Shown in pieces: positions 3,368-19,837 of a stretch of DNA of 52,653 nt (its first letter is position 1; every line of letters starts with the position of its first letter). The notes under the pieces are model-generated. The model was not told where the DNA came from. It saw nothing but the letters and a program-made list of their open reading frames with translations, and did no database searches. Source of the DNA: a virus; UHGV virus genome UHGV-0083175, one strand, 5' to 3'. The translations under genes and the position numbers were made by a program.

Positions 3368-3705
3368 GGGTGAGAATTTATATCGCCGGTCCGATGACGG
3401 GATATGAAAATTTCAACCGTGAGGCGTTTCACAAGGCGGAAGAAGCACTGAAACAGGAAGGGCATACCGTATTAAATCCCGCAGTACTTCCGGACGGGCT
3501 GACTCAGCCACATTACATGGATATTTGCATGGCAATGATTCGTTGTGTGGATGCGGTTTATATGCTGAAAGGCTGGCAGCGGTCGGCAGGCGCTAAGGCA
3601 GAGCTGCACTGGCGGAGAAACTGGGGCATGCAGTTATTTTCCAGGAGGCAACCAGTGAGCGAAATTAATTACCAGGAACTACGGCAGGTGAAAGAGAAAG
3701 CATAA
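3364..3705 (+). CDS. DUF4406 (nucleoside 2-deoxyribosyltransferase-like) protein, probable 3' frameshift
   Basis: [23 protein letters not shown] is a DUF4406 signature. The family-typical C-terminus LAEKLGHAVIFQE lies in the +1 frame from about 3609. Confidence 0.65.
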   Translation: MRVRIYIAGPMTGYENFNREAFHKAEEALKQEGHTVLNPAVLPDGLTQPHYMDICMAMIRCVDAVYMLKGWQRSAGAKAELHWRRNWGMQLFSRRQPVSEINYQELRQVKEKA

Positions 3706-3815
3706 TCCAGAACTGAATAATTAAAATCAGCACTGTAAATAAAATTTAATCCTTAACCGGAGGGATTCCTGCACCCTCAGAACATCAGGAGACCGCCCGG
3801 CAGGGCGGTAGTGAA

Positions 3816-3998
3816 ATGCGAAAGTTCAAAATAATTATTGAAACGGGAATCGCCGGTGGAGATTCCGAGGATGAATTCGAAGTGAATGATGATGCGACGC
3901 CTGATGAAATTCATAACGAAGCAAAAGAAATTTTCTTTAACTACTGCAATTACTCATATCACGAAATAAAAGACGAAGAGGAAGAACAAAATGGCTGA
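3816..3998 (+). CDS. Hypothetical small acidic protein
   Basis: 60-aa ORF, D/E-rich, sitting in an AT-rich inserted segment. Confidence 0.45.
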   Translation: MRKFKIIIETGIAGGDSEDEFEVNDDATPDEIHNEAKEIFFNYCNYSYHEIKDEEEEQNG

Positions 3999-4167
3999 TT
4001 TTGGTTCAACTAAATACAACGTCAGTTTTGAAGAATGGCATGAACTGTTAATGGACTATGCAGAGTTACGTGGTGGAAGTGCCGCCGATGCTGAAGCATG
4101 GCGTGATGACTATGAAGCAGGAAAAACTCCGGTCGAAGCATATTGTGATGAGTGGGGCTATGAATGA
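3991..4167 (+). CDS. Hypothetical 58-aa protein (below the ORF-track cutoff)
   Basis: The ATG at 3991 overlaps the upstream stop, and its TGA overlaps the ATG at 4164 (ATGA). Translation: MADFGSTKYNVSFEEWHELLMDYAELRGG... Confidence 0.45.
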   Translation: MADFGSTKYNVSFEEWHELLMDYAELRGGSAADAEAWRDDYEAGKTPVEAYCDEWGYE

Positions 4168-4679
4168 GCGAGATTAATTATCAGGAAGGGCATGAAACGG
4201 CAGGGCAGGCAAAACCAGTGGCATGGCGATATCGCTACGTGAAGAAAGACGTTACAGACTTTCAGGGGAAGCTGTGGGTTGGTGACTGGAAATATGTACC
4301 GACAAAAGAGGATTGCAACGACAGACCGAACTATGAAATTCAGGCCTTATTCATCGGCCCGCCAGTCCCGGTGACATCAGAAGGACTGGTTAAAGCTGTG
4401 CGCTTTTATGAACAGGTAAAGCGTGAGAATCCGCCAGTCGAAACAGGAGCATGGAAGGATGCTGTTGACTGGGTGCTCAGAGAGGCCTGCTGTGCTGCCA
4501 TTCTGGGTAAAGCCGACAATCCACCAGCATCCGGCAATCAGGTTAGCGAATTAGCAATGTGGGTTAAACGGCTGGTCAGCCAACTGAAAAAAGCGAAGCC
4601 GGACTGCAAATTACCGGATAAGGCGATGGACTACCTGAAGCGAAACGGACTGATAAACGAGGAGAATATTTTACGATGA
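4164..4679 (+). CDS. Hypothetical phage protein
   Basis: 171-aa ORF, translationally coupled on both sides. Confidence 0.6.
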   Translation: MSEINYQEGHETAGQAKPVAWRYRYVKKDVTDFQGKLWVGDWKYVPTKEDCNDRPNYEIQALFIGPPVPVTSEGLVKAVRFYEQVKRENPPVETGAWKDAVDWVLREACCAAILGKADNPPASGNQVSELAMWVKRLVSQLKKAKPDCKLPDKAMDYLKRNGLINEENILR

Positions 4680-5565: not shown

Positions 5566-6615
5566 GTGCGGGTATTACTTCGACCTGTTCTGGTGCCGGA
5601 ACTTGGCCTGGTGGTCCTTAAGCCTGGACGCGAATCACGGCCTGTTTTTCATTGCGGCAGGGTGCTGGTGGAGCCGGAACCGAAAAACATGCGCGGTCTG
5701 CCGTCCGGAGTCGTTCCTGCCGTTCGCCAGCCGCTGGCAGAGGATAAAACATTACTGCCATTTTTCAGCGATGAGCGGGTTATTCGTGCAGCAGGTGGTG
5801 CAGGTGCACTGTCTGACTGGTTATTACGTCACGTGAAATCCTGCCAGTGGCCACACGGCGATTATCATCACAGCGAAACCGTCATTCACCGTTATGGTAC
5901 CGGCGCGATGGTGTTGTGCTGGCACTGTGACAACCAGCTGCGCGACCAGACATCAGAATCACTCGATCAACTTGCTCAGCAGAATCTGGTTGCCTGGATG
6001 ATTGACGTCATCCGTCACGCAATAAGCGGTACGCAGGAGAGGGAGTTATCGCTGGCCGAATTATCCTGGTGGGCGGCCTGCAATCAGGTGGTGGATGCAC
6101 TACCTGAGGCAGTAGCGCGTTGTTCGCTGGGATTACCAGCGGAAAAAATCCGCTCCGTATACCGTGAGAGTGACATCGTACCGGGAGAACAGACAGCCAT
6201 CAGCATACTGAAGCAGCGCACAAAAAATATTGCGCTGCCACTTCACGTCCACCAGCAACAAAATCCACCACAGAAAAAAACGGTTGTCAGTATCGCCGTT
6301 GATCCGGAGTCTCCTGAATCGTTCATGAGGCGGCCTAAACGTCGCCGTTGGGTTAATGAGAAATACACGCGCTGGGTAAAGACACAGCCGTGTGCGTGTT
6401 GTGGTAAGCCAGCTGACGATCCGCATCACCTGATTGGTCATGGTCAGGGGGGAATGGGAACAAAGGCCCACGATATTTTCACGCTACCGTTGTGCCGGGA
6501 GCACCACAACGAACTTCATGCAGACCCGCAGGAGTTTGAGAAAAAGTACGGCTCTCAGATTGAGTTAATTTTTCGTTTTCTTGATCACGCCTTTGCGACT
6601 GGCGTGCTCGGGTAA
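5566..6615 (+). CDS. DUF968 (YdfU-like) protein
   Basis: GTG start after GGAGG. The C-terminus, C.CCG....DPHHL......GMG.K..D....PLC..HH.ELH, is the DUF968 Zn/HNH-like signature. Same 349-aa length as recalled for YdfU. Confidence 0.8.
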   Translation: MRVLLRPVLVPELGLVVLKPGRESRPVFHCGRVLVEPEPKNMRGLPSGVVPAVRQPLAEDKTLLPFFSDERVIRAAGGAGALSDWLLRHVKSCQWPHGDYHHSETVIHRYGTGAMVLCWHCDNQLRDQTSESLDQLAQQNLVAWMIDVIRHAISGTQERELSLAELSWWAACNQVVDALPEAVARCSLGLPAEKIRSVYRESDIVPGEQTAISILKQRTKNIALPLHVHQQQNPPQKKTVVSIAVDPESPESFMRRPKRRRWVNEKYTRWVKTQPCACCGKPADDPHHLIGHGQGGMGTKAHDIFTLPLCREHHNELHADPQEFEKKYGSQIELIFRFLDHAFATGVLG

Positions 6616-9136: not shown

Positions 9137-10195
9137 ATGCTTAATACTGTAAAAATATCCAGTTGTGAGTTAATCAACGCCGACTGCCTGGAATTTATCC
9201 GGTCGTTACCCGAAAATTCTGTTGACCTGATAGTCACGGACCCGCCGTACTTTAAAGTGAAGCCTGAGGGCTGGGATAACCAGTGGAAGGGCGACGATGA
9301 TTACCTGAAGTGGCTGGACCAGTGTCTGGCGCAGTTCTGGCGGGTGCTGAAACCTGCCGGAAGTCTTTACCTGTTCTGTGGCCATCGCCTGGCATCTGAT
9401 ATCGAAATCATGATGCGTGAACGCTTCAGTGTACTGAACCATATTATCTGGGCAAAGCCGTCCGGACGCTGGAACGGGTGCAACAAGGAAAGCCTGAGGG
9501 CGTATTTCCCCGCCACAGAGCGCATTCTGTTCGCGGAACATTATCAGGGGCCGTATCGTCCGAAAGATGCCGGGTATGAGGCGAAGGGCAGGGCACTGAA
9601 ACAGCATGTGATGGCTCCGCTGATTGCTTACTTTCGTGATGCGCGTGCTGCCCTGGGGATAACGGCAAAACAGATAGTGGATGCCACAGGAAAGAAAAAC
9701 ATGGTGTCGCACTGGTTCAGTGCCAGTCAGTGGCAGCTACCGAACGAAAGCGATTATCTGAAATTACAGGCGCTGTTTGCCCGGGTGGCAGAAGAGAAGC
9801 ATCAGCGCGGTGAACTGGAAAAGCCCCACCACCAGCTGCTGGAGACGTATACTTCACTGAACCGGCAGTATGCGGAACTGCAGAGTGAATATAAGCATCT
9901 GCGGCGGTATTTTGGCGTGACGGCGCAGGTGCCGTACACGGATGTGTGGACGCATAAACCGGTGCAGTACTATCCCGGGAAACATCCGTGCGAAAAACCG
10001 GCAGAAATGCTGCAGCAGATAATCAGCGCGAGCAGTCGTCCGGGGGACCTGGTTGCAGATTTTTTCATGGGGTCGGGTTCGACAGTCAAAGCCGCGATGG
10101 CGCTGGGGCGTCGTGCAACAGGCGTTGAGCTGGAGACTGAACGTTTTGAGCAGACGGTCAGGGAAGTTCAGGATTTAGCCAGTCAGAACGGATGA
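9137..10195 (+). CDS. Orphan DNA N6-adenine (beta-class) methyltransferase
   Basis: DPPY motif IV near the N-terminus (..LIVTDPPYF) and motif I FFMGSGST near the C-terminus. No restriction enzyme gene is adjacent. Confidence 0.85.
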   Translation: MLNTVKISSCELINADCLEFIRSLPENSVDLIVTDPPYFKVKPEGWDNQWKGDDDYLKWLDQCLAQFWRVLKPAGSLYLFCGHRLASDIEIMMRERFSVLNHIIWAKPSGRWNGCNKESLRAYFPATERILFAEHYQGPYRPKDAGYEAKGRALKQHVMAPLIAYFRDARAALGITAKQIVDATGKKNMVSHWFSASQWQLPNESDYLKLQALFARVAEEKHQRGELEKPHHQLLETYTSLNRQYAELQSEYKHLRRYFGVTAQVPYTDVWTHKPVQYYPGKHPCEKPAEMLQQIISASSRPGDLVADFFMGSGSTVKAAMALGRRATGVELETERFEQTVREVQDLASQNG

Positions 10196-10235
10196 TATTG
10201 CAGGATTAGTTACGTACCGTTATTATCCTGCGCCC

Positions 10236-10310
10236 GGCCCTTTAGCTCAGTGGTGAGAGCGAGCGACTCATAATCGCCAGGTCGCTGGTTCAAATCCAGC
10301 AAGGCCACCA
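10236..10310 (+). tRNA. tRNA with anticodon CAT (Ile2/Met type), irregular acceptor stem
   Basis: Cloverleaf read by eye: TAGCTCAGTGGT D-arm, CTCATAA anticodon loop, GGTTCAAATCC T-arm, encoded CCA. The 3' acceptor strand is AAGGCC against a 5' strand of GGCCCTT. Confidence 0.7.
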
Positions 10311-10319
10311 TATCACATA

Positions 10320-10396
10320 CCGCCATTAGCTCATCGGGATAGAGCGCCAGCCTTCGAAGCTGGCTGCGCGGGGTTCGAGTCCTCGATGGCGGTCCA
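10320..10396 (+). tRNA. tRNA-Arg (anticodon TCG)
   Basis: Acceptor stem CCGCCAT/ATGGCGG, anticodon loop CTTCGAA, T-arm GGTTCGAGTCC, encoded CCA. Confidence 0.85.
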
Positions 10397-10674
10397 TTAT
10401 CTGCATTATGCGTTGTTGGTTCTGATGAGTGAATCATTGTCTTTTGAGCAACAGGCTATCATATAAGATAGCCTCAGACTTCCTTGTTTATTCTCGCCGG
10501 ATGCTTCGTAGATATTTGCAGGCATCTGTATGCAGGGGTATTATTGCGGCATATATCATCCGGAAAAATAAAAACTACATGCTGATCCGGAGATGATAGT
10601 TACAAGTCCTCCCGGATCCCGCATATTTACTATATTTTATAGATAATTGTTCTTGTTAATATGGAGATGGATAA

Positions 10675-16408: not shown

Positions 16409-16654
16409 ATGTCAGAAATTACATCCCTGGTCACTGCTGAAGCAGTGAAGGACGTCCTGCGCTCTGAAGAAGTCCTGAGCGCACTGAAACAGAAACTTCG
16501 CCATAACCTGGAAGCGCGTCTTGATGCAGAAGTGGATGCCATTCTGGATGAACTGCTGGGCGCACCGGCAGTTCCGGAGCCGGAAGGTATCGCGGGTGAG
16601 GGGAGTGCTTCAGATGGCGGTGACCCCACACCTGACAGCGACATGATGATGTAA
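16409..16654 (+). CDS. Hypothetical acidic protein
   Basis: The ATG at 16409 gives [30 protein letters not shown]... (81 aa). The track ORF is extended upstream to 16235. Confidence 0.55.
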
Positions 16655-16730
16655 GCATGCGCAAGGGACCATCGGTGTGTGCCGGTGGTCTTTATATTGT
16701 TGTGAGCTTCCGGATTGCGGGAGACGGGGT

Positions 16731-16946
16731 ATGTACCAGATGGAAAAAATCACAACAGGTGTGTCATACACCACGTCAGCGGTGGGAACGGGCTACTGGT
16801 TCCTGCAGTTGCTGGACAGGGTTTCCCCGTCTCAGTGGGCGGCAATAGGCGTGCTGGGGAGTCTGCTGTTTGGGCTGCTGACATATCTGACGAACCTGTA
16901 TTTCAAAATTAAAGAAGACCGGCGTAAGGCGGCGCGGGGAGAGTAG
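16731..16946 (+). CDS. S: S21-type class II holin (pinholin), dual-start
   Basis: [71 protein letters not shown] matches the recalled phage 21/Stx-phage S. Met1 and Met4 form the dual-start motif. Confidence 0.9.
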
Positions 16947-16949
16947 ACG

Positions 16950-17741
16950 ATGAATAAACAATACGAACTGGTTGTTAAAGGGATAAATATTTACCCGGAT
17001 AAGATTACTGTTACTGTGGCGCTGGAAACTGGTGGGTATACGTCACTGTTGTTGCCAAATGTGGTGATTGATCTTGATCGTGTTGAAGGTGCCCCGCTGG
17101 AGTTTTACGAAGCTGAGGCGAAAAAGAAGGCGAAGCAGTTTTTCATGGATATTGCTGCCGGGTTATGTGAAGGGAACGAACCGTTGCCGGAAAAGCGCCT
17201 CTGTTCAGAAGAGCGGTATACCATACAAATTAACAATGCATATAACACGATACAGTCAGAAAAAGATGATATCGAATCACGCATTGAAAAACTGGAGAAC
17301 AGCGTCGTTGAACTGAATAAAAAACTGTCGGTGCAGATCCCTTCCGAAGGTGAAAAAAAACGCCGTGATGAGCAGTTCGCGGCGTTTTACGATTATTGCC
17401 GGAAAGTGATGAGCAGAAATCTCGCAGAGTGTTTCCGTATTCAAAAAAACAGAGAGCGCTCTGCAAATAGTGAGATTCTGGATAATTTTTTAAAGGGGAC
17501 GCATCTCGCCAGTGATTGTTTCATTGCTCATTCTTTTGGTGGCTTTCATGAGGCCATCAAACATGATGTTGAGAGAAGTCCAGGTATCCTCTGTTCCATT
17601 CCCGTAAGCATCGAAATAGACACAAATACGATAACCGGTGAACTCGTTACCGCCGGAGTCGGTATATTCCGTCATGAGGGGAACGATGCCAAAGGTTCCT
17701 TTACAAAAATCGGGCCGTTCTTTCTGAAGGTAGAGCGATAG
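16950..17741 (+). CDS. Hypothetical protein (inserted cassette, gene A)
   Basis: 263-aa ORF starting 3 nt after the holin stop, with a coiled-coil-like middle. The last ~84 codons are antisense to gene B and may be fortuitous. Confidence 0.45.
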   Translation: MNKQYELVVKGINIYPDKITVTVALETGGYTSLLLPNVVIDLDRVEGAPLEFYEAEAKKKAKQFFMDIAAGLCEGNEPLPEKRLCSEERYTIQINNAYNTIQSEKDDIESRIEKLENSVVELNKKLSVQIPSEGEKKRRDEQFAAFYDYCRKVMSRNLAECFRIQKNRERSANSEILDNFLKGTHLASDCFIAHSFGGFHEAIKHDVERSPGILCSIPVSIEIDTNTITGELVTAGVGIFRHEGNDAKGSFTKIGPFFLKVER

Positions 17742-18122
17742 TTTGTTAAGTACCCATCCGACAGCTCGCTCATTTTGGTTTATTTTCGTATCGCGAAACA
17801 AAAATTCGAAGCGGCCAGATGACGCATGGGTGCAACCAAATACCGGGGCGTATTCATCAACCTTTGGTGTTCCTGAAAACATGCAGTCCGTGCTCTCGAA
17901 TGCAGATGAATTGCTGTTGATCCACTTAACAAAAGAAAAAAAGGTCTGAATCGCTTGTCTGTCTGAATATTCAACAAAATCCTCAAGGTGTGTCTCGATC
18001 AGTTCCGGGTGTTTACGAAAGTCATAATATTGACCGGGACGATATTTATGAGTGGTTGTTTTATCCCATGGTTGTGCTCTGCGTCCCTGTAAACGGAGGT
18101 CTGCCGCTGGATAGATAAGCAT
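17490..18122 (-). CDS. Hypothetical protein (inserted cassette, gene B)
   Basis: 210-aa ORF. The ATG at 18122 follows a GGAGA RBS. The sequence looks globular and no family was recognised. It is oriented against the late operon. Confidence 0.6.
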   Translation of the reverse strand: MLIYPAADLRLQGRRAQPWDKTTTHKYRPGQYYDFRKHPELIETHLEDFVEYSDRQAIQTFFSFVKWINSNSSAFESTDCMFSGTPKVDEYAPVFGCTHASSGRFEFLFRDTKINQNERAVGWVLNKLSLYLQKERPDFCKGTFGIVPLMTEYTDSGGNEFTGYRICVYFDAYGNGTEDTWTSLNIMFDGLMKATKRMSNETITGEMRPL

Positions 18123-18252
18123 AAGTAATCTCCTGGTGGAATGTAATCCACGATCATCCGGGGAAATTAAGAACCCGCCAGTGCCCACCACTGGTGGGGT
18201 GAAGGCTTAACATATCCAGGGATTCGGAACCGATAAATCCTGATAAATATCC

Positions 18253-18786
18253 ATGAACACCAAAATAAAATACGGCCTGTCGGCTGCCGTTCTGGCGCTG
18301 ATTGCCGCAGGGGCGCCTGCGCCTGATATTCTCGACCAGTTTCTGGATGAAAAAGAAGGTAACCACACCACGGCATACCGTGATGGTGCGGGTATCTGGA
18401 CCATTTGTCGTGGTGCCACCAGGGTGGATGGCAAACCTGTCGTCCCGGGCATGAAGTTGTCGAAGAAAAAATGCGACCAGGTTAACGCCATTGAGCGTGA
18501 TAAGGCGCTGGCATGGGTGGAGAAAAACATCCGGGTGCCACTGACCGAACCCCAGAAAGCGGGGATCGCGTCATTCTGCCCGTATAACATTGGCCCCGGT
18601 AAGTGTTTCCCGTCGACGTTTTATAAACGAATTAATGCAGGCGATCGCAGGGGAGCGTGTGAAGCGATTCGCTGGTGGATTAAGGACGGTGGCAGGGACT
18701 GCCGTATCCGCTCAAATAATTGTTATGGTCAGGTATCCCGTCGTGACCAGGAGAGCGCGCTGGCGTGCTGGGGTATCGACAGATAA
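18253..18786 (+). CDS. R: SAR endolysin (R21-type lysozyme)
   Basis: An N-terminal signal-anchor-release segment KYGLSAAVLALIAAGA, followed by a lysozyme core (EG....AY.D..GIWTICRG). 177 aa. Confidence 0.9.
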   Translation: MNTKIKYGLSAAVLALIAAGAPAPDILDQFLDEKEGNHTTAYRDGAGIWTICRGATRVDGKPVVPGMKLSKKKCDQVNAIERDKALAWVEKNIRVPLTEPQKAGIASFCPYNIGPGKCFPSTFYKRINAGDRRGACEAIRWWIKDGGRDCRIRSNNCYGQVSRRDQESALACWGIDR

Positions 18787-18876
18787 GCAGAATATTTTGC
18801 TGAAAAATGAGGTTTGCTTACATGGACGGATAACACGAAATCCTGCGAACTGGCAAAATGTAAGTGAATAAAAGTA

Positions 18877-18909
18877 AAAACCCCGTTTGTTGGCAGCAAG
18901 CGGGGTTTT
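18877..18909. terminator. Bidirectional-looking intrinsic terminator inside the lysis cassette
   Basis: aaaaCCCCG-15 nt-CGGGGtttt, flanked by an A-run upstream and a T-run downstream. Confidence 0.55.
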
Positions 18910-19006
18910 GTGTTTCTGACCTTGGATAAGGCAAGGGAGAAATTATGGGTAGGGAGGTGCTTTCCCTGTGAGGAAGTATAAAAGATTCTTTCTGAGGTTG
19001 TCCATT

Positions 19007-19120
19007 ATGAAAGGCATTGAAGTGGAGACGCCAGCCAGTCTGGATTTAACAAGAGCGGCAGCTTTTGCCATTCGTATTGTGGCCATTGCTGTTCTGGTCT
19101 GGGCAATCCGTTGGTGGTGA
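19007..19120 (+). CDS. Putative 37-aa membrane peptide upstream of Rz
   Basis: [37 protein letters not shown], with GAGG 9 nt upstream. Its stop is 1 nt before the Rz ATG. Confidence 0.35.
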
Positions 19121-19589: not shown

Positions 19590-19612
19590 TATTTTTGTTA
19601 TCCGGAGGATGC

Positions 19613-19837
19613 ATGAAGAAATTACTGGTAACCGTAAAGCCTTTTCAGGGAACAATTCCGTTCCGTATTTTGCAGCGTGGTCGTGTTCTTGTTGAAGGTT
19701 CGTTCAGTGGTAAATGTACGCAATTACACTCCCGGACCTTTCAGGTGAATGCCACGAATGAAGAGCTAACCGTTGAGTGTACGATGAATGCCGCTAAATG
19801 CCGTATGGTATCGGCTGCATTACAGCCAGTGTGTTGA
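19613..19837 (+). CDS. Hypothetical protein
   Basis: The ATG at 19613 follows GGAGG; 74 aa. Confidence 0.45.
   Translation: MKKLLVTVKPFQGTIPFRILQRGRVLVEGSFSGKCTQLHSRTFQVNATNEELTVECTMNAAKCRMVSAALQPVC

Follow-up and report, generated by a model that had tools for sequence, protein, structure and literature searches.

We present an analysis of the block of DNA that separates the holin gene S from the lysozyme gene R in the virus genome UHGV-0083175, a stretch of 52,653 nucleotides that is referred to as the window throughout. The results make us confident that the block is composed of two parts, namely a resident late gene of the YdfR family that is truncated at its 3' end and an inserted 800-bp cassette that runs leftward, i.e., against the late operon. 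The cassette carries gene B, which is a real gene of an uncharacterised protein family, and opposite the 3' part of B lies a second open frame, here called X, which is probably a coding frame under selection.

The boundaries of the cassette are given by comparison with O157:H7 EC4115 and G8, which lack positions 17447-18246 and are homologous to the window up to position 17446 and again from 18247, 6 nt before the start of R. A preliminary description of the region had read the whole interval between S and R as a 1.3-kb two-gene cassette. That foreign DNA is wedged into the lysis cassette is borne out by the break in homology. The extent of the insertion has to be revised, however, as the rightward gene A is resident and only the 800 bp between the two breaks are inserted.

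A resident gene truncated by an inserted cassette

Gene A is an open reading frame (ORF) of 263 aa at positions 16950-17741 of the + strand, and its ATG is found 3 nt past the holin stop codon (TAG, 16944-16946). Its first 96 residues match PF07041 (DUF1327) with 116.3 bits (gathering cut-off 25; E 7.5e-34), and its N-terminus is 38% identical to YdfR of E. coli K-12 (BLASTP E 3e-20). The claim that neither protein of the block belongs to a known family is therefore valid for B but not for A. The product of A is made up of a DUF1327 N-domain (aa 1 to ~90) and a coiled coil (aa ~90-166), and the coiled-coil module is common to the proteins of PhiR12_1, EC4115 and G8 and to a 181-aa protein of locus L061. 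The homology to the EC4115 and G8 relatives ends at '...SRNLAECF', that is, at aa 166 and nt 17446, and the profiles phrog_2091 and phrog_1085, which represent families of unknown function, cover only aa 1-171. Full-length relatives continue after the coiled coil with a C-terminal domain of ~125 aa. This domain is absent from A, which lacks the native C-terminus of its subfamily of ~185-296 aa, and the Prokaryotic Genome Annotation Pipeline (PGAP) calls A a pseudogene ('incomplete; missing C-terminus').

The position of A on the late strand between a class II holin and a lysozyme is as expected for the YdfR family. The order of genes in the Qin prophage of K-12 is essQ-ydfR-rrrQ, and the same slot, referred to below as the S-R slot, holds a 114-aa YdfR in BP-4795, a 268-aa YdfR-family protein together with a leftward 104-aa gene in the Shiga toxin (Stx) 2 phage 86, a 169-aa DUF1327 protein together with a leftward 86-aa gene in PhiR12_1, and a 185-aa protein in EC4115. 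Because so many relatives carry genes in the slot, the premise that the S21-type holin and R genes abut, on which the preliminary description was based, turns out to be wrong. By homology and position, A is a widely conserved resident late gene of the S-R slot and not cargo. Residues 1-72 of K-12 YdfR bind the catalytic (N-terminal) half of RNase E, and RNA co-purifies with the protein, which may bind RNA (PMC13232886). A literature search on DUF1327 returned nothing beyond one genome paper, and a search on PhiR12 returned nothing.

Because X continues the truncated YdfR-family gene in frame across the joint at 17446/17447, ORF A is, as read from the alignments, a composite of a DUF1327 domain, a coiled coil, a short linker and X. 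Its last ~97 residues are encoded by the inserted cassette, the final ~90 of them in the X frame. The tail of A had been described as either a chance open frame or a result of the insertion of B; the second part of that statement stands, whereas the first does not, the antisense frame being conserved with the B cassette. The Stx2a phage Stx2_14040 (L012:1751-2236) lacks the equivalent of window positions 16955-17308 and has ~48 nt of unrelated sequence instead; its + strand ORF comprises 161 aa without DUF1327, the joint between coiled coil and X is the same, and B is identical.

The homology breaks indicate that the cassette has replaced the 3' end of the resident gene. The block was correctly described as AT-richer than its neighbours, the G+C content being 0.435 in the resident part (16950-17446) and 0.451 in the cassette compared to 0.542 in the holin gene and 0.547 in R. 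Base composition is nevertheless a weak criterion for a moron here, as the resident part of A is AT-rich as well.

The leader of the leftward unit is a block of 77 nt that precedes B, gp06 of phage 86 and the 'DUF1823' gene of PhiR12_1. The copies outside the window are located at L015:2883-3010, L014:2468-2578 and L061:~5790-5860. The copy in L061 lies upstream of a B pseudogene and has no R gene next to it, and therefore the block belongs to the leftward unit, even though on the + strand it contains the translation-initiation region of R. Conserved sub-blocks of the leader also occur upstream of those B homologues that are located between the tail genes I and J. The block holds a -35-like TTTATC (18237..18232) and a -10-like TATGTT (18214..18209) separated by a 17-nt spacer (7/12 match to consensus) and a palindrome, CCCACCAGTGGTGGG, at 18198..18184. 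The fold of the leader RNA is not unusual (z -1.27), and a search of positions 16500-18500 against Rfam matched no family. That one leader precedes three leftward cargo genes of different kinds suggests that the S-R junction of lambdoid phages is a slot in which cargo is swapped; a search of the literature on S-R cargo hot spots found nothing that covers the B cassette.

Gene B

B is a real gene, and its earlier description as a gene that points against the late operon, with its own ribosome-binding site (RBS) and room for a promoter, holds; 130 nt (18123-18252) separate its start from that of R at 18253. Full-length homologues are 53-65% identical to it. A word-indexed search retrieved only six clusters of them, whereas an exhaustive profile search found 251 representatives (clusters at 50% identity) at E<=1e-3 and 183 at E<1e-10. 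Nearly all members of the family are single-domain proteins of 195-235 aa, most commonly ~200-210 aa, and they include 'hypothetical proteins' from Pseudomonas and Hafnia chromosomes. Among the phage-borne homologues the proportion of differing nonsynonymous sites (pN) is 0.2-0.35 compared to ~0.8, a saturated value, for synonymous sites (pS). Nineteen positions are nearly invariant and many of these are charged; the nearly invariant polar residues are R15, E47, D48, N69, S73, E76, D79, R104, R110 and N115. With acidic residues and arginines conserved in this way, B may be an enzyme or may bind a nucleotide or nucleic acid.

An AlphaFold (AF2) model built from a 93-sequence alignment has a predicted local distance difference test score (pLDDT) of 94.7 and a predicted template-modelling score (pTM) of 0.91. 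It shows a soluble protein of the alpha/beta class, in which a sheet of four antiparallel strands is combined with three long helices and the N-terminal extension is ordered. The maximal Kyte-Doolittle mean over 19 residues is 0.46, which indicates no transmembrane segment. On both grounds, B does not resemble a lysis protein of the holin, antiholin or spanin type, for which a transmembrane segment or a lipoprotein signal would be expected. An alternative start at the GTG at 18191, which would give a protein of 233 aa, was rejected, because every homologue aligns from the Met encoded at 18122.

Database comparisons assign no relative of known function to the family. B has no match in Pfam, PHROGs, PADLOC or NCBIfam, and the 93 family members have no family match in Pfam, PADLOC or PHROGs. 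In PADLOC-DB 2.0, A and B hit no family at E<=1 and the 93 members gave only three scattered hits at E~0.008. The B profile retrieved only septin noise (E~0.6-0.8) from the PDB sequences, and a Foldseek search of BFVD with the model returned uncharacterised jumbo-phage proteins at template-modelling scores below 0.5. With a confidently predicted fold, but neither a Pfam, PHROG or defence entry nor a structural neighbour, the family offers an open field for the discovery of function. Truncated forms of B that comprise 113 aa recur in L040, L041 and the database cluster P0022 (21 members).

The antisense frame X

The 3' ends of A and B overlap by 252 nt (17490-17741) in exact antisense codon register. 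In this register only the codons TTA, CTA and TCA of B give rise to antisense stops, and for this reason a mere shadow ORF was expected at first. Four results argue against a shadow ORF: the openness of the frame, its own start signals, the drop in pS and the outcome of a codon-shuffling test.

1) Openness. The frame is open for 82-88 codons from the B stop in 9 of 10 divergent homologues, and in nearly all of them it ends at the same codon of B. When Leu and Ser codons were permuted within the gene, the probability of such openness was 0.0003-0.18 per sequence and 0.0003-0.05 in eight of the sequences, which are not fully independent of each other.

2) Start signals. X has its own Shine-Dalgarno (SD) sequence and ATG in seven of the eight other phage contexts examined, the flanking intergenic sequences being unrelated. 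In the phages where B lies between I and J and in L061, X comprises 89-104 aa, with an ATG 3-14 codons outside the B stop and an SD of AGGAG, GAGG or GGAGG located 4-8 nt ahead of it.

3) Synonymous divergence. The pS of B is 0.45-0.65 in codons 128-210, which lie opposite X, compared to 0.75-0.95 in codons 1-127, and pN hardly shifts between the two parts.

4) Codon shuffling. The identity in the antisense frame is 0.41-0.66, compared to 0.26-0.34 expected after shuffling of synonymous codons, and P is at most 0.001 in 12 of 12 phage-clade pairs. The first 127 codons of B, which served as the control, yielded no excess in 11 of the 12 pairs.

The locus L061:5922-7043 provides a further case, in that B is destroyed there by a deletion and a frameshift and X is intact, with 104 aa and a strong AGGAGG RBS. 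On the late strand of that locus, X follows the 181-aa protein with the coiled coil mentioned above. The N-domain of this protein differs from that of A and resembles the window ORF at 19595-19837. In a set of 5.8 billion proteins, every examined locus that encodes an X-like protein has it opposite a B gene. Because X-like proteins lie opposite B and distant B members lack the frame, X seems to have originated by overprinting within the phage clade of the enterobacteria. The comparative signal, which combines start signals, a confined drop in pS and an internal control, is unusually clean for a nested antisense frame in bacteria and makes B/X a bacterial case of antisense dual coding that is directly testable.

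Distribution and mobility of B

Of 5426 complete E. coli genomes, 133 carry the B block with at least 99% identity, at a total of 200 places. The carriers are mainly Shiga toxin-producing E. coli (STEC) and bovine-associated strains, with serotypes that include O26:H11, O111:H8, O145, O103, O91:H21, O113:H21 and O22:H8. Among 50,697 phage records, eight contain B and all eight are Stx1a or Stx2a phages, within whose lysis cassettes the gene lies. B is intact in 19 of 21 near-identical IMG/VR loci, and there are relatives with the same holin and R that have no B.

Annotation has mostly missed the gene. In PGAP/RefSeq the intact B is unannotated in most carrier genomes (e.g., NC_013361.1:2196659-2197344), including that of the reference STEC O26:H11 strain 11368, so that a conserved 210-aa gene is absent from the annotation of most RefSeq carriers. 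The ORF at L001:3891-4523, which is 100% identical to B of the window, is likewise not called by PGAP, and in the GenBank records of the phages (LC567819 and its relatives, three records) only the + strand ORF of 263 or 161 aa is annotated.

Homologues with 50-65% identity are found in other slots, and their orientation is always opposite to that of the flanking late genes. The slot between Q and the holin gene holds a 219-aa homologue in a Salmonella P22-like prophage (L008:8001-13257), ~3 kb from Kiwa (KwaA/KwaB) and facing, like Kiwa, against the late genes; the same slot holds B in the E. coli prophage L061, which has a different lysis cassette (holin_8/GH108). Homologues lie between the tail genes I and J in 15 IMG/VR loci, in the metagenome contigs L010 and L011 and in a Yersinia prophage, and beside the tape-measure gene in L057 and L058. 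One homologue is located in a prophage remnant near sodC. Because homologues sit in several different slots and always against the late genes, B is, as judged from its genomic contexts, a mobile, moron-like cargo gene in four slots: S-R, Q-holin, tail I-J and beside the tape-measure gene.

Two observations concern these contexts. In the I-J phages (L011:~500-560, L045, L053, L056, L062) a strong GC hairpin followed by T6-7 is found on the late strand; it resembles an intrinsic terminator and lies between the B promoter region and the start of J, inside the tail operon. Among the distant members, whose contexts in L017-L019 are rich in hypothetical genes and otherwise uninformative, the one in L019 (25% identity) lies ~5.5 kb from a CAP12/PCTIR TIR-domain gene (L019 coordinates 3451-4473 and 10001-10639), which is a weak hint of a defence island.

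Layout of the window

The window represents the late region of an Stx-type lambdoid prophage. The late genes run in the order SASA esterase, DUF1378, DUF826, S21-type holin, the block studied here, R21-type lysozyme and Rz/Rz1. The coordinates given in the preliminary description for the holin stop, A, B, their overlap and the R start all agree with the sequence, and those of the features discussed here are collected in Table 1. At the equivalent place PGAP labels the holin a 'class II holin family protein' (coding sequence 16731-16946 in the window). The N-terminus of the lysozyme, which is of the signal-arrest-release (SAR) type, is hydrophobic and rich in Gly and Ala. The closest relatives carry ant, a phage antirepressor gene, between R and Rz (L001:5462-6157); in the window only ~300 nt (18787-19120) separate R and Rz, and ant is absent.

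Table 1. Positions of the features of the S-R block and of its two neighbours in the window.
Feature	Position	Strand	Content or basis
Inserted moron-like cassette	17447..18246 (800 bp)	-	Hairpin, B with nested X, RBS, leader/putative promoter block
YdfR/DUF1327-family late gene, truncated	16950..17446	+	PF07041 match; homology to full-length relatives ends at 17446
Gene B (210-aa protein, predicted soluble)	17490..18122	-	Full-length homologues, purifying selection, confident AF2 model
Putative X coding frame	17469..17741	+	Antisense to B codons 128-210; no start of its own here; read as the last ~90 aa of A
Shine-Dalgarno sequence of B, AGGAG	18130..18134	-	Read from the sequence; 7 nt before the ATG at 18122
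Shared leader/putative promoter block, 77 nt	18176..18252	-	Near-identical before three unrelated leftward genes
Terminator-like hairpin and T7 run	17442..17464 (hairpin 17464..17449)	-	Pattern scan; 26 nt past the B stop
S21-type class II holin	16731..16946	+	PF04971, E 1.5e-32; left neighbour, outside the insertion
R21-type (SAR) lysozyme	18253..18786	+	PF00959, E 7.3e-25; right neighbour

Proposed origin and mode of action

The explanation that we consider best, and on the whole probable, is that a resident gene and an inserted cassette together make up the block, with B and X possibly used in a switch-like manner. According to this explanation, the S-R slot would first have held a late gene of the YdfR/DUF1327 family with N-domain, coiled coil and C-terminal domain, the 3' end of which was then replaced by the moron-like cassette. 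The cassette would have arrived as a leftward unit, with the leader and putative promoter abutting the R start, the AGGAG RBS, B (the product of which is predicted to be cytoplasmic) and the hairpin with its T-run. It would also have brought X on the strand of the late operon, opposite the last 83 codons of B. The recombination joint would have removed the start of X and fused the frame to the truncated YdfR-family gene, resulting in the 263-aa 'gene A'.

In the lysogen, where Q is not available, the late operon would be silent and B would be made from its own weak promoter. Upon induction, Q-antiterminated transcription from pR' would run through S, A-X, the antisense strand of B and R, reading through the hairpin, which would act in the leftward direction only. 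This transcription would damp B via polymerase collision (convergent transcription) and via pairing of B mRNA with antisense RNA, and the late mRNA would be translated into A-X in this phage and into free X in others. The outcome would be a reciprocal switch, with B present in lysogeny and X in lysis. That expression is on in the lysogen and off in the lytic cycle could well be so, although we put it slightly on the doubtful side of even.

As to function, a benefit for the lysogen, in the form of a defence of the anti-phage or exclusion type, is our best guess for B, proposed because of the orientation of B, its behaviour as cargo in several slots and the one neighbouring Kiwa system; the suggestion is tentative and we hold it to be rather unlikely to be correct as it stands. 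By analogy with known systems, our best guess for X is that it modulates or neutralises B during the lytic cycle of the prophage itself. The most specific version of this idea, in which B and X form a hitherto unrecognised two-product prophage module, the two strands of one 250-bp stretch encoding a lysogen effector of a new protein family (for defence, exclusion or host manipulation) and an antidote or off-switch translated only from the Q-antiterminated late transcript, is speculative and appears quite improbable. If it were true, convergent transcription and an antisense-encoded partner would flip the module between lysogeny and lysis, and in Stx phages the module could influence lysis and the release of toxin.

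Several observations weigh against parts of this explanation. The hairpin downstream of B is weak (-7.1 kcal/mol, z -0.32), no stabler than shuffled sequence, and is only suggestive of a B terminator. The leader is called a putative promoter here because no promoter in the region passes a scan for the sigma-70 consensus, 7/12 being the best candidate. An A7 run inside B (17936-17942) differs by +/-1 in the otherwise near-identical loci L002 and L003, where B is truncated as a result; the variation could reflect phase variation, decay or sequencing error. The remaining points concern X. In the window the frame lacks a start codon of its own (ATG, GTG or TTG). Of the 16 near-identical IMG/VR loci in which the A-X ORF could be read, 3 have it interrupted. 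Distant members of the B family do not have the frame, and little or no signal of it is seen in L004 and L008, the homologues from Salmonella. The lower synonymous divergence could also stem from a constraint at the level of RNA or from mosaic recombination instead of a protein.

These last points would fit an explanation in which X is not a protein at all. The conserved segment would then be an RNA element (a structure in the 3' part of the B mRNA, an antisense regulator or a protection of the late transcript) or the product of recent recombination, and the 263-aa A ORF would be an accident of read-through. Such an explanation would also agree with the somewhat higher amino-acid identity of B in its C-terminal part and with the general frequency of long shadow ORFs in a register where so few codons make stops. 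It does not predict, however, that an SD and an ATG should lie 3-14 codons outside the B stop in seven of eight contexts with unrelated flanks, that synonymous divergence (dS) should fall far more than nonsynonymous divergence (dN), that almost every homologue should have the end of the frame at one and the same codon of B, or that X should survive in L061 where B is destroyed; nor does the region match any Rfam family. We take the non-protein explanation seriously and still hold it to be unlikely, and we prefer to regard X as a coding frame.

For B, the question is whom it serves. Its place in the lysis cassette beside a YdfR-family gene, a relative of which binds RNase E's catalytic domain in K-12 (PMC13232886), would fit a gene that benefits the phage, either by anti-defence or by modulating lysis timing or RNA metabolism together with the YdfR-family protein, and the concentration of the block in STEC and bovine-associated O26, O111, O145, O103, O91, O113 and O22 strains would fit a factor for host fitness or virulence. 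The absence of any defence-family match likewise counts in favour of such roles. On the other hand, B is not tied to the lysis genes or to YdfR, because the same gene also occurs in the I-J and Q-holin cargo regions; its invariable orientation against late transcription is unusual for a gene that is needed late, and relatives are found in Pseudomonas and Hafnia chromosomes. We therefore judge a role of this kind unlikely. It is more unlikely by far that A and B both belong to the normal, conserved set of accessory lysis genes in this group of phages. That description suits A, YdfR/DUF1327 being a common S-R resident in Qin, BP-4795, phage 86, PhiR12_1 and many E. coli prophages, but it fails for B, given its presence in so few E. 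coli genomes and phage records (133/5426 and 8/50,697), the relatives that share the holin and R but not B, and its non-lysis positions in other phages. Finally, existing annotation could be taken to mean that B is spurious and the 263-aa ORF A the sole real gene, as LC567819 and its relatives annotate only the + strand ORF and PGAP usually leaves the minus strand empty. This is hardly credible for a deep family of fixed length under strong purifying selection, with a pLDDT of 94.7 and with members that are present without A in other contexts, the more so as the family profiles of A end at aa 171.

Comparison with known systems

The closest counterpart of the resident gene is ydfR of Qin in K-12, which occupies the same slot between an S21-type holin and a lysozyme and encodes a homologous N-domain. 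Gene A differs from it in that a coiled coil is added, the C-terminal domain of the family is lost and the protein ends in residues encoded by the cassette.

The inserted part is comparable to the morons, a concept that reportedly goes back to Juhala and Hendrix. The classic morons of lambda are bor and lom, of which bor is oriented against the late operon. Like them, the B cassette is a small autonomous unit that separates genes found side by side in relatives and differs from its flanks in base composition; it comes with an RBS and a terminator-like hairpin, is inserted at several sites in different phages, and runs against the late operon as bor does. It differs in that its product is predicted to be cytoplasmic and belongs to an uncharacterised family, not to the outer-membrane lipoproteins, in that its promoter and its expression in the lysogen are only putative, and in that another conserved frame lies on the strand opposite B and the leader is shared by three cargo genes.

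The proposed logic of B and X is reminiscent of the sieB region of P22, for which Ranade and Poteete are said to have reported in 1993 a prophage exclusion gene, sieB, a nested self-immunity product, esc, and an antisense-RNA switch, sas. B would resemble sieB as a prophage accessory gene with a second product inside its own coding sequence and with an antisense relationship that links the lysogenic and lytic states. However, esc arises from an in-frame internal start on the same strand, X lies on the opposite strand, and there is no sequence similarity between the two systems. SieB of P22 is described in PMC10883804. In the single-gene prophage system BstA, the self-immunity element aba lies inside the gene's own DNA (PMC8585504). 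B would be comparable in that its second determinant is nested in the gene, but aba is a DNA element rather than an ORF, the BstA protein is larger and of a different kind, and the PADLOC models have no match to B. The likeness of B/X to sieB/esc and to BstA/aba is accordingly one of analogy and would not amount to membership in either system.

Antisense overlapping genes of enterohaemorrhagic E. coli (EHEC) are supported experimentally by RNA-seq and Ribo-seq and have little phylogenetic depth (PMC9927249, PMC5960689, PMC6294744). What they share with B/X is that a pathogenic E. coli has a long antisense overlap of a non-trivial kind which annotation pipelines miss, whereas the candidate frame X is supported by comparison across phages at 53-65% identity. 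What appears to be new here, in view of these comparisons, is the combination of a moron with a nested antisense frame and a shared, swappable leader.

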